Positions 9,662 to 47,329 of a stretch of DNA of 47,379 bases are shown piece after piece; position 1 is the first letter of the stretch; the number at the start of each line of letters is the position of its first letter. Under the pieces are notes generated by a model that saw only the letters and a list, made by a program, of their open reading frames with translations, had not been told where the DNA came from and did no database searches. Made by a program: the position numbers and the translations under genes. This stretch comes from a virus (lineage: Duplodnaviria; Caudoviricetes): the IMG/VR virus record IMGVR_UViG_3300048579_000158, positions 1-47,379 of that record; one strand, written 5' to 3'.

Positions 9662-9877
9662 CTAGCGATCGGCGTCACTGTCCGGCGGCAGGGCTTCGAG
9701 GACGGCCCTCATCTCCGGCCGGGCCTGGAGCAGTCGGACAACGGTCGCGACAGGACCTGGGACCGCGACAGTCGCCCAATACTGGCCAGTACGCGGCTTT
9801 GAACCCAGCAGCACGGCAAACCCCTCTTGTGTGTATCCAAGCGCCTTTATGGCCAACCGGTACTCCTCGGGTTTCAT
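9662..9877 (-). CDS. Small XRE-like HTH regulator
   Basis: MKPEEYRLAIKALGYTQEGFAVLLGSKPRTGQYW...VPGPVA. Confidence 0.82.
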   Translation of the reverse strand: MKPEEYRLAIKALGYTQEGFAVLLGSKPRTGQYWATVAVPGPVATVVRLLQARPEMRAVLEALPPDSDADR

Positions 9878-9952
9878 GCGTTTACGCCGCCTGTAATTCC
9901 GTTGCTGATACGCAACATTAGGCGCTGCAACCCGGAAAAACAAGCTAGCAAC

Positions 9953-10002
9953 ACGCAATCTTTGTGCTTTTCGCTTGCAGACACGCAAACCTTGCGTATA
10001 GT
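9953..10002 (+). promoter_or_regulatory. Sigma70-type promoter with overlapping palindromic operators
   Basis: -35 TTGCAG 9975-9980, -10 TATAGT 9997-10002. Perfect ACGCAA-N3-TTGCGT at 9983-9997, imperfect copy at 9953-9967, half-site at 9910. Confidence 0.75.
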
Positions 10003-10120
10003 GATTTCTAAGGCAACGGGGACAACCCATTGACCTTTCGACAAAGACGGCACGAACGACCAAAGCGCCAGGGTGGCGAACTAGCTGGGGTCGGGAGGTC
10101 TCGAAAGGACCCTGTGACCA

Positions 10121-10194
10121 GACGATGGTGAAACGGCAGGCCGCAAGGCCCACCGTCGCGGGGTCGCTCCCCGCCTGACGATCCATCGTCAGCG
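10121..10194 (+). ncRNA. Type II hammerhead ribozyme; predicted cleavage after C10157
   Basis: Stem II GACGATGG/CCATCGTC; GAAA 10130-33; stem III ACGG/CCGT capped by GGCC-GCAA-GGCC; GUC triplet; stem I GCGGGG/CCCCGC; CTGACGA core 10175-81; loop I CGCT can pair with 3' tail AGCG. Confidence 0.85.
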
Positions 10195-10222
10195 TGTTAA
10201 GCTCCCTACCATGGAGAAACGG

Positions 10223-10456
10223 ATGTCGATCGACACTCTGGGTTATGTCAAACGGCTCGAAGCAGCCGGGTTCGCACGAGCACAGGCCGAAGCGCAAGCC
10301 GAGGCATTACGGGACGAGCTGGTCCCACAGCTTGCGACCTCGGCAGACCTCGACCGGCTGAGTGACCGGATAGAGGCAACCCTCTGGAAACACACCGTCG
10401 CGATCATTCTCGCGGTGATGGCAGTCGGCGGGTTCCTCTTACGCTTCAACCAGTAA
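10223..10456 (+). CDS. DUF1640/CCDC90-like small coiled-coil membrane-anchored protein
   Basis: IDTLGYVKRLEAAGFARAQAEA...LATSADL with C-terminal TM; GGAG RBS. Confidence 0.8.
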   Translation: MSIDTLGYVKRLEAAGFARAQAEAQAEALRDELVPQLATSADLDRLSDRIEATLWKHTVAIILAVMAVGGFLLRFNQ

Positions 10457-10474
10457 GGCTTGACCACGCAGCGA

Positions 10475-10509
10475 GCCCCGGCGCCCACAAGGTGCCGGGG
10501 TTTTCCTTT
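10475..10509 (+). terminator. Intrinsic terminator
   Basis: CCCCGGCGCC-CACAA-GGTGCCGGGG-TTTTCCTTT. Confidence 0.7.
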
Positions 10510-10588
10510 GCGTAAACGAGTAGGCCCGCCAGGGCTTCGACCTCCTGGCGGGCCATTTTGCGAAGCTCCCTACCAAAGGACTCTTCAC

Positions 10589-10862: not shown

Positions 10863-11075
10863 ATGGCCAACCCAACCGAAGTTGCACATCTCGCGGAGTA
10901 CCTGCTCCACCAACACGACATGGGAGACCCCTGCATCACAAGCCATTCGCTCGCAAAGGTGCTCGCCGACGCTCAGGCGGCTTACCTTTCACCGAACCGT
11001 CCAAGGCTCGCCAACAGGCTGCGGGTTGCGATCGATGATCTGGAGGACCGTCTCGACACCATCGAAGGCCGCTGA
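10863..11075 (+). CDS. Hypothetical protein
   Basis: AAGGA RBS; MANPTEVAH...; stop coincides with the start of the 49-bp repeat. Confidence 0.7.
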   Translation: MANPTEVAHLAEYLLHQHDMGDPCITSHSLAKVLADAQAAYLSPNRPRLANRLRVAIDDLEDRLDTIEGR

Positions 11076-11121
11076 CGCAGCGTTAGGGGCTCTCGCCCAG
11101 GAGAGCCCAGCGCCCTGCGCC
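11073..11121 (+). repeat. 49-bp hairpin repeat, copy 1
   Basis: 48/49 identical to 11636-11684. Confidence 0.95.
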
Positions 11122-11401: not shown

Positions 11402-11638
11402 ATGCAGGCCTTCGCTAAACGCAACGACGGGATGAAGTTCGACAACCAAGCGTACTGGCAGCACCGCAGCCACGCTGGTTTCGAGAACACTCTTTTCGTT
11501 CTTCGGACCGCCGCCGCTTGGCGGCTGGACGCCCTTTCCGGACGCCCAGGAACGCCCAAAGACGAACTGATCAAAAAAGCCCGTAGCTGTCTCGACGCTG
11601 CGCGCAGAAGGCCTTTCCACCGCACGCTCCCCGGTTGA
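11402..11638 (+). CDS. Hypothetical protein
   Basis: GGGAG RBS; stop begins repeat copy 2. Confidence 0.6.
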   Translation: MQAFAKRNDGMKFDNQAYWQHRSHAGFENTLFVLRTAAAWRLDALSGRPGTPKDELIKKARSCLDAARRRPFHRTLPG

Positions 11639-11684
11639 CGCAGCGTTCGGGGCTCTCGCCCAGGAGAGCCCAGCGCCCTGCGCC
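11636..11684 (+). repeat. 49-bp hairpin repeat, copy 2
   Basis: See copy 1. Confidence 0.95.
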
Positions 11685-12029: not shown

Positions 12030-13268
12030 ATGACGACTAATACCACCTCTGTGGGATGGCAGGCAATCGCGGCCGTAGAAACGGCGCGCATCGGCTCTGC
12101 CAGCCTCTCTGCCTCGTACTACGCCATGCTCGGCCTCGCAGTGCCTGCGCTTCCTGTCGGCGGCGTGGCGATCCCTGCGGCCGCCATTGGGCTCGGCGCT
12201 CTCGCGGCATCCCTGGACTATATCAAGGGCTCGCTGCTCTCGGTCGGCCTCGGCGGTCGCGGCCACGGCGTCCTGCGGCGGATCACGGCCCTCGCGCTCG
12301 GCGCGGTGCTGTTTGTTGCATCGGGCGTGGCAATCGACGGCGTGATCCTCAAGTTGCGCGCGACCGGCTCTGCCGGGCCGGCCGACGTCATCAAGCGCCA
12401 CGACGATGCGGCCGGTGATCTCAAGGCGGCGAAAGACGAGCTTGAAACGCTGGCCAGCGTGCGCACGACGGACCAAGTGCGCGCGGATATGGATCGCACC
12501 AAGATCGGGCGCAACACGTGGCGCGACACGGCCGAGTGCACCAACTTCACGGGCGACTTGGCGGCCTACCGCAAGGGGTGTCAGCCCATGCTCGATCTGC
12601 GGGTCGAGATGGCCGACGCAATCCGCAAAGGGAACCTCGAGGCAAAGCGCGACGAGTTGCAGGATAAGCTTGACGGGCTCGGTCCCAGGCCGGTCGCGGC
12701 CGACCCTCAGGCGACTGCAATCGCCGCTGTAACGGGTGTCTCGGAGAATTTCGTGTTGCTGGTCCTCGCGGGCATCCTTGGCTTTGCAATCGAGCTCGTC
12801 TCCTGCTTTGGCCGCTATGCGATCGACCGCCCAGCGCCGAGCGCTCCGGACGTTCCGGCGGAACGTCCGGCCGTCGATTCCGCCGGACAATCCGACTATC
12901 CGGCCATGGCGGACCATCCGGCGCTGTTTTCGAACCATCCGAACGTTCCGCCGGAACGTCCGGATGGCGGGGTGAAGGTTCCGGCTGTGCCGAAACGTCC
13001 GGCGCCCAGCGCTCCGGAAGTTCCGGCGGATCATCCGGAGACGGAGACCGCGCGGCGGAAGGCGGATGTCCTGGCCTTCATCAGATCAGAGACCCGTATC
13101 TCCGGACTGATCGAGAGCCAGTCGTATCTGGCGCAGGCAACCGGCACGCCAGACGCGACGCTGTCGGATTGGCTCGCAGAATGGGAGCAGGCCGGGCTGA
13201 TCGTCCGCCGGATGGACGGTCGCCGGAAGGTGATCGCGGCGCCGGAATGTGAGATGGCAGTCGCCTAG
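12030..13268 (+). CDS. Multi-TM coiled-coil protein with Pro-rich linker and C-terminal winged HTH
   Basis: 3 N-terminal TM, coiled coil, one further TM, then SQSYLAQATGTPDATLSDWLAEWEQAGLIVR; AAGGA RBS. Confidence 0.8.
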   Translation: MTTNTTSVGWQAIAAVETARIGSASLSASYYAMLGLAVPALPVGGVAIPAAAIGLGALAASLDYIKGSLLSVGLGGRGHGVLRRITALALGAVLFVASGVAIDGVILKLRATGSAGPADVIKRHDDAAGDLKAAKDELETLASVRTTDQVRADMDRTKIGRNTWRDTAECTNFTGDLAAYRKGCQPMLDLRVEMADAIRKGNLEAKRDELQDKLDGLGPRPVAADPQATAIAAVTGVSENFVLLVLAGILGFAIELVSCFGRYAIDRPAPSAPDVPAERPAVDSAGQSDYPAMADHPALFSNHPNVPPERPDGGVKVPAVPKRPAPSAPEVPADHPETETARRKADVLAFIRSETRISGLIESQSYLAQATGTPDATLSDWLAEWEQAGLIVRRMDGRRKVIAAPECEMAVA

Positions 13269-47252: not shown

Positions 47253-47329
47253 TGGTCGGGGCAGCGGGATTCGAACTCGCGACTTCTTGCTCCCAAAGCA
47301 AGCGCTCTACCAGGCTGAGCTATGCCCCG
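47253..47329 (-). tRNA. tRNA-Pro(TGG); prophage attachment site
   Basis: 77-nt cloverleaf CGGGGCA...TTTGGGA...TGCCCCGACCA; 3' end 14 bp from the integrase stop. Confidence 0.96.

Follow-up and report, generated by a model that had tools for sequence, protein, structure and literature searches.

The window analysed here, a stretch of 47,379 nt, is the virus record IMGVR_UViG_3300048579_000158 (Duplodnaviria; Caudoviricetes). Terminase and head genes occupy its left side, and its right side carries an integrase with an adjacent tRNA (47256-47329); another tRNA, with a CAU anticodon, lies within the phage (36062-36133, minus strand). Between the HNH/terminase genes and a ligase/SRAP pair, and on the opposite strand to both, we found a stretch that contains a hammerhead motif and is followed downstream by a run of small genes. 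The leader and its first gene comprise the following elements:

9662-9874, minus strand: divergent ORF of 70 aa, 42% identical to the ORF at the same place in the related phage contig L123
9975-10002, plus strand: promoter-like site (TTGCAG, 16 nt, TATAGT), read by eye and below the scan threshold
10049-10119, plus strand: three-way-junction RNA domain (P1, GAA, P2, GGA, P3, CU) recognized by its shared topology, part of the predicted 5' product
10201-10216, plus strand: GCUCCCUACCA motif and SD, with CUCC predicted to pair with the GGAG of the SD
10223-10456, plus strand: gene 1, a 77-aa CCDC90/DUF1640-like coiled-coil protein with a hydrophobic C-terminus (Pfam PF07798, E 2.7e-4, below the cut-off; phrog_17872)
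10473-10509, plus strand: terminator-like hairpin with a U-rich tail, 3' of gene 1 (z -4.45)

The 70-aa ORF, which had no match in Pfam or PHROGs and is replaced in a second related contig (L124) by an unrelated ORF of 66 aa, probably encodes a small DNA-binding repressor of the hammerhead leader. A promoter scan gave no site. A palindrome with 6-bp arms (9983-9997) overlaps the promoter-like site and is a possible operator, and transcription would start near 10008-10012. Three ACGCAA half-sites are present at 9905-9997, one of them part of a perfect palindrome that lies over this promoter-like sequence; run X3 contains a related contig with 11 listed changes with respect to the window at 9946-9995, and an additional hairpin of the 5' leader (10010-10037) is absent from L123 and L124.

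Gene 1 has 146 homologues. A chromosomal one belongs to a Hyphomicrobiaceae genome, a hint that the phage host may be an alphaproteobacterium, and the chromosomal homologue L136 has no hammerhead upstream. The hairpin after gene 1 was not listed by the terminator scan; both L123 and L124 have comparable hairpins downstream of their counterpart of the gene. Farther downstream, a 49-nt direct repeat (11073-11121 and 11636-11684, 98% identical, hairpin-forming) starts at the stop codons of two small genes and flanks two further ORFs in the manner of a cassette boundary. A membrane protein with a C-terminal helix-turn-helix-like part (12030-13268 in the window, 3402-4463 in L123) comes directly after gene 1 in L123 and L124, while in the window five small ORFs lie between the two; the likeness between the window and L123 proteins is confined to the C-terminal 115 residues.

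The initial annotation had described a type II hammerhead at 10121-10194, and all the core elements that it named are found there in the topology it gave. The parts of the motif and its 3' tail, all on the plus strand, are as follows:

10121-10128 with 10183-10190, plus strand: stem II, 8 bp (descriptor)
10121-10129, plus strand: 5' arm of stem II including U11.1; 2 of 9 pairs change on both sides among three sequences, with a further case in a contig of run X4
10130-10157, plus strand: G12 A13 A14, stem III and the GUC triplet (descriptor; stem III variable in relatives)
10158-10174, plus strand: stem I (6 bp, 10158-10163 with 10169-10174) and loop I UCGCU (10164-10168); pairs invariant in relatives
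10175-10182, plus strand: catalytic core CUGACGA (10175-10181) and U10.1; invariant in relatives except position 10.1
10183-10190, plus strand: 3' arm of stem II (descriptor and alignment of relatives)
10186-10192, plus strand: anti-core UCGUCAG, 7-bp complement of the core CUGACGA across a 4-nt loop (whole-leader fold; invariant in three sequences)
10191-10194, plus strand: AGCG, candidate pseudoknot partner of loop I, overlapping the anti-core by AG

The GAA at 10130-10132 is followed by A15.1 (10133), which pairs with U16.1 (10156), and C17 is at 10157. U11.1 at 10129 faces U10.1 at 10182, the atypical core-proximal U-U pair of stem II that had already been pointed out. Stem III has the GCAA tetraloop previously described, to which we can add that it consists of 4 bp, a 2x2 internal loop (CA/CA) and another 4 bp. 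The type II consensus (C3 U4 G5 A6 N7 G8 A9, G12 A13 A14, A15.1-U16.1 and H17) is complete, and three stems surround the core, stems I and III closed by loops and stem II open, as is characteristic of type II. A descriptor search found this as the single type II hammerhead of the window on either strand, and 200 dinucleotide shuffles scanned on both strands gave no match, even with loose stem lengths. The minimum-energy fold of the 74-mer is the hammerhead fold (z -3.45), but its reverse complement folds equally well (z -3.76), so that the strand is set by the core motifs and not by folding. In the Rfam search, a check that the initial annotation had proposed, the window copy gave no hammerhead match even at E<=10. 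Hammerhead_II (RF02276) scores for L124 and L123 are 31.7 and 24.1 bits with a cut-off of 37, which places them outside Rfam membership; in this model stem II has 2 bp, and stem I is longer than in the window copy.

L123 and L124 were the two related phage contigs among 61 candidates in a search with gene 1, and both have a hammerhead at the same distance from the gene 1 counterpart as the window. In the three sequences the core and stem I are invariant, stem III has been rebuilt, and 10.1-11.1 is G-C in both relatives, position 10.1 being a G. Two of the nine pairs of stem II are compensated; this is weak evidence alone, since it comes from just three sequences and 59 of 500 shuffles reach the same number. 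A further case is provided by a 218-nt contig of run X4 (depth 2.1), which matches 10153-10239 with a single change, A10185 to T, and bears the compensating A in its 5' stem II arm, together with a U at 10.1, a retained U-U pair and a fourth version of stem III. Errors could be present at this low depth, yet both changes fit each other. Stem III has thus been rebuilt four ways (window, L123, L124, X4) and is paired every time, and 10.1-11.1 occurs as a natural U-U variant in the window and X4 and as G-C in L123 and L124. The absence of stem covariation in related prophages had been named as grounds for abandoning the hammerhead; we found compensatory changes in stem II.

Other searches added few relatives. 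BLAST against named phages gave just weak matches of 45 nt, all outside the ribozyme, and pattern scans based on the U-U pair returned 2 viral and at least 120 genome loci, with no U-U type II hammerhead among the matches listed. A pattern for the close family found the two known contigs alone in viral data, 8 chance matches in genomes and a single contig in metagenomes that is identical to L124 across the region read; none of 401 genomes of the family of G003 matched. In two raw-read runs, sampled at about 1 in 100 reads, no read matched the L124 copy. We also considered a type III register through the SD region (AUGGA GAAA CGG, 10211-10222) with the same cut site, and rejected it because it is 14.7 kcal/mol worse than the anti-core fold and is not kept in relatives.

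Sequence and covariation in the relatives therefore support a type II hammerhead in a prophage leader with the cleavage site and product sizes initially annotated, and 10121-10194 is almost certainly a real motif of this already known kind, with a predicted cut after C10157. As had been noted, the ATG follows an SD and lies at 10223, 65 nt past G10158; the 5' RNA would measure about 150 nt if transcription starts at the putative promoter.

Published type II hammerheads (RF02276; Perreault et al. 2011, PMC3088659) share with the window copy the core, the strand order, the cleavage triplet and the site just upstream of a small phage gene, as well as the U10.1-U11.1 variant and a possible pseudoknot between loop I and the 3' tail. 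The type II form, the U-U pair, pseudoknots and prophage arrays are all in print there, and U10.1-U11.1 is described as a natural, tolerated variant, such mispairs having passed the filter of that study only when activity was measured (PMC3088659). The window hammerhead differs in its stem II of 8-9 bp (2 bp in the Rfam model), in being a single copy that heads a leader instead of part of an array, and in its 7-bp tail complement of the core, which goes without mention in the portions of the text of PMC3088659 compared here. The hammerhead alone is thus an ordinary new example, and the interest lies in the anti-core hairpin.

Formation of the anti-core hairpin excludes stem II and the active fold. 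In the whole-leader fold stem II is absent and the core CUGACGA is paired with UCGUCAG, five of the seven anti-core letters doubling as part of the outer stem II arm. The initial reading of the hammerhead is supported in part; it overlooked this competing hairpin, the prevailing structure predicted for the full window leader, so that efficient constitutive cutting cannot be assumed. L123 and L124 keep the 7-bp hairpin intact with a different loop; being invariant among these three close relatives, the anti-core has no covariation of its own there. The energy gap (active minus anti-core fold), obtained by constrained folding with energies that ignore pseudoknots and Mg2+, is 0.0 kcal/mol for the short RNA and +3.1 kcal/mol for the full leader in the window, -2.3 and +1.0 kcal/mol in L123, and -4.6 and -2.7 kcal/mol in L124. 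As the window transcript grows, stem II has a probability of about 0.5 at 8-10 nt past A9 and of <0.05 by 15 nt, in equilibrium folds that include neither kinetics nor tertiary contacts. An antisense-strand hammerhead was rejected as the source of the anti-core: there is none on the minus strand of the window, and a full reverse core occurs in 3 of 42 survey tails among the matches listed (see below).

A decaying or permanently misfolded ribozyme that has lost cutting in the window phage could produce the same picture, given the U-U at 10.1-11.1, the interrupted stem III, the missing Rfam score and the pairing probability of 0.95 for the anti-core fold in the full leader. We regard this as very improbable, considering that the core is intact, that stem changes are compensated, that stem III is paired in all four of its versions, and that the U-U pair is common to the window and the independent X4 contig.

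For the pairing of core and tail beyond this family, we surveyed viral data with two scans. The first, with stem I fixed and the tail free, gave 24 viral loci, mostly type II hammerheads, many of them in arrays preceding ribosome-binding sites. Anti-cores of at least 6 bp are present in 20 of 55 distinct candidates (shuffled tails: mean 1.65, maximum 7). After leaving out the window, L123, L124 and L163 (actually a type III), they are found in 17 of 51 type II candidates, on 5 of 15 loci; shuffled tails of this reduced set average 1.3 loci, and 0.45% of them reach 5. In the second scan UCAGC was required in the tail, and N7 and the base facing it could be any nucleotide. It gave about 180 loci, of which the 122 listed comprise 90 distinct matches, 42 with the full hammerhead structure and 48 non-hammerhead; the two scans have 5 hammerheads in common. 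The first five core pairs, bar N7, are no evidence, as they are fixed by the search pattern.

Among these listed matches, the base opposite N7 pairs in 41 of the 42 hammerheads (C:G 19, U:A 12, U:G 10, C:U 1, C:A 0) versus 13 of the 48 non-hammerhead sequences, and a pyrimidine stands opposite G8 in 37 of the 42. C7:A, never seen, would be expected about 5.3 times within GC strata, and three control positions showed nothing. The frequency of U:G together with the absence of C:A is the mark of pairing in the sense RNA, not of a DNA palindrome; for the matches listed, we rejected both a DNA palindrome and GC bias as the cause. Clustering of the listed matches to 35 or 25 groups, by locus id and sequence likeness, left median Fisher p values of 1e-4 and 2e-3. 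The effect persists in the 26 listed cases without a partner in loop I or the 5' arm (p 0.006) and is not significant in the 15 with a spacing of at least 7 (p 0.15). Core and anti-core are 4 to 13 nt apart, 35 of 42 have an SD with a start codon downstream, and the anti-core fold is favoured in 29 of 42 with a median of +1.3 kcal/mol, all among the matches listed. Pooling the sets with a UCAG tail, N7 pairs in 55 of 58 of the listed hammerheads, including A:U twice and G:C once. A core/anti-core pattern occurs at 13 viral loci, 11 of them without a hammerhead. An anti-core pattern occurs at 14 loci in genomes, none of which passes the descriptor, so that no cultured host was found. From these covariation patterns, the core/tail pairing of phage type II hammerheads appears to be a selected second fold, and a mutually exclusive second fold under selection would mean that selection on these ribozymes goes beyond the speed of cutting.

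Inhibitory folds are known from viroid hammerheads and from engineered switches. For a natural anti-core hairpin in phage hammerheads we found no published description in the literature searched, which covered a minority of the subscription papers and some of the key hammerhead surveys, with the text of PMC3088659; this second fold appears to be undescribed in print.

The tail admits another use. The initial annotation had proposed that loop I CGCU pairs with the tail AGCG in a pseudoknot, and the complementarity is indeed there: a 4-bp match directly 3' of stem II is expected by chance in about 1% of cases. Covariation does not back it, three of the pairs being invariant and the fourth broken in L123, with none compensated. 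The pseudoknot would also have to form after a stem II that is 9 bp long, compared with 2 bp in the Rfam model, and that sits next to a stem I of 6 bp; stem lengths are critical for such pseudoknots (Perreault et al., PMC3088659). A tertiary contact between stem I and stem II, in most type II hammerheads a pseudoknot, is frequent but not required. A loop I/AGCG pseudoknot is possible and unproven in the window. The motif might be an ordinary constitutive hammerhead with this pseudoknot, with the anti-core a by-product of the outer stem II sequence in the window lineage. The invariance of UCGC in loop I, the preference of L124 for the active fold and the efficient cutting of the tandem prophage hammerheads of Perreault et al. 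(PMC3088659) would all agree with such a ribozyme, but we consider it decidedly unlikely, because apart from the broken pair and the stem lengths, the AG that completes the anti-core is kept, and the covariation of the survey, among the matches listed, points to the second fold.

Upstream of the hammerhead, the three-way junction has the same topology and the same junction letters in the window, L123 and L124, with different stem sequences. Its folding z-scores are weak (-0.86, -1.95 and 0.02), it has no match in Rfam, C4-type models included, and a search for the domain found it in none beyond its three source sequences. Downstream, the 11-nt motif GCUCCC-NN-CCA has exactly two copies (10201-10211 and 10565-10575), located before the SDs of genes 1 and 2; both window copies have TA (UA in the RNA) as the middle letters, and L123 and L124 each have AT (AU) at the two sites. 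A similar action on downstream sites is known for the antisense RNAs C4 and CI (P1 and P4), which host RNases mature. The likeness to C4 (Rfam RF01695, PMC2864571) and to the P4 CI RNA lies in a small, structured leader RNA of a phage accessory operon and in a repeated motif at downstream ribosome-binding sites; the window domain differs in having no Rfam match and in the failure of its guide-target covariation.

The ribozyme might mainly serve to mature the junction RNA, which would then target the GCUCCC-NN-CCA hairpin at each of two ribosome-binding sites, that of gene 1 and that of gene 2. The conservation of the junction RNA in three phages, the motif present exactly twice and changing in concert, and an invariant junction GGGAG complementary to CUCCC all argue for it, as does the stronger binding of the L123 and L124 P2 apices to their own targets (-10.3 and -12.7) than to that of the window (-4.2 and -5.7). 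However, the window P2 apex binds the foreign target (-9.7) no less strongly than its own (-9.5), 39% of downstream 14-mers bind it as strongly, and the domain has no C4-type match and weak z-scores in three sequences only. An antisense role thus fits L123 and L124 and not the window, and we treat it as a minor and quite improbable alternative, one that can coexist with slow one-way processing.

That processing is the reading to which we give roughly even credence: the tail complementary to the core would make the hammerhead a slow, one-way leader-processing switch that cuts after C10157. A repressor-controlled promoter near 10000 would produce a short transcript with the upstream structured RNA, the ribozyme, gene 1 and the terminator. 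During transcription stem II is predicted to start closing 6-10 nt past A9, a few nucleotides before the anti-core is complete; afterwards the active fold and the core/anti-core hairpin would compete at near-equal energy, so that only part of the RNA would be cleavage-competent at a time, and the U-U pair is predicted to tilt the window copy further towards the off fold. By the known chemistry, the cut would leave a 2',3'-cyclic phosphate on the 5' RNA, about 150 nt long, and a 5'-OH on the mRNA. Core and anti-core would end up on the mRNA, because the 3' product of a type II hammerhead keeps the core. The predicted fold of this product is two adjoining hairpins from its first base, and once free it should adopt them as a stack, stem I forming the first and core/anti-core the second. 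These hairpins would strip stem II, release the 5' RNA and block religation, and the mRNA would gain a uniform, protected, hairpin-capped 5' end. A 5'-OH end without unpaired bases should resist 5'-end-dependent decay. Full-length hammerheads ligate far faster than minimal ones (PMC6155905), and the likely role of the anti-core in this model is partial inhibition before the cut followed by a lock against religation. When both products of L123 and of L124 are cofolded, stem II persists, and the prediction for these two phages thus contains no release by the anti-core; the stems II of the survey, mostly of 4 bp, would fall apart anyway, which means that release can be no more than part of the purpose. 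The predicted folds pair the SD of gene 1 in the uncut and in the cut RNA alike, and no effect on translation is predicted.

The same energies would also suit a regulated switch, the main rival, in which the RNA rests in the core/anti-core hairpin as its off state until the core is freed by a factor of the phage or host (a protein, antisense RNA, ribosome or ion), making the cut conditional. The folds are nearly equal in energy in three phages, the anti-core is preferred in most of the listed survey members (the 29 of 42 above), the weak U-U closing pair has been retained in two lineages, and the possibility of regulated cleavage was brought up by Perreault et al. for phage variants that cut slowly (PMC3088659). 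Yet we looked for a candidate factor or a conserved binding site and found none, and within one array the same hairpin stands before numerous unrelated genes, a distribution more in keeping with general processing than with a response to a specific signal; conditional cutting thus seems unlikely.

Slow processing with a lock has partial parallels. The engineered RiboJ insulator (PMC8942793) likewise places a hammerhead and a downstream hairpin in the 5' leader, removes the upstream sequence and gives a uniform mRNA 5' end; it is a synthetic device with the additional hairpin as an element of its own, whereas in the window the catalytic core is itself one strand of the hairpin, whose formation precludes the active fold. 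In the haloviruses HF1/HF2, HHphage is also a variant hammerhead that directly precedes the first gene of a phage transcript, with a mapped 5' end within 3 nt of the cut site (PMC3088659); it differs in being a core insertion variant of an archaeal virus, and the parts of that paper compared describe no anti-core. Why phages place hammerheads before small genes is an acknowledged open question (PMC6765202, PMC6155905). If the lock model is true, the hammerhead of the window would be a natural equivalent of RiboJ and could serve synthetic biology as a compact part. More tentatively, we propose a widespread subclass of phage type II hammerheads in which a built-in anti-core makes a two-state device that here would also free the conserved three-way-junction RNA, giving a ribozyme-matured small RNA and a self-capping mRNA.

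Some variants were observed along the way in other phage loci. In the L167 array, several copies (e.g., 708-790, 1187-1270 and 2494-2570) combine a C-A mismatch at 10.1-11.1 with an anti-core, and a second CUGACGA lies a few bases 3' of the latter. Type II hammerheads with an additional U after A9 are present in L146, L148, L152, L153 and L162, and that of L147 has an additional A before GAAA.
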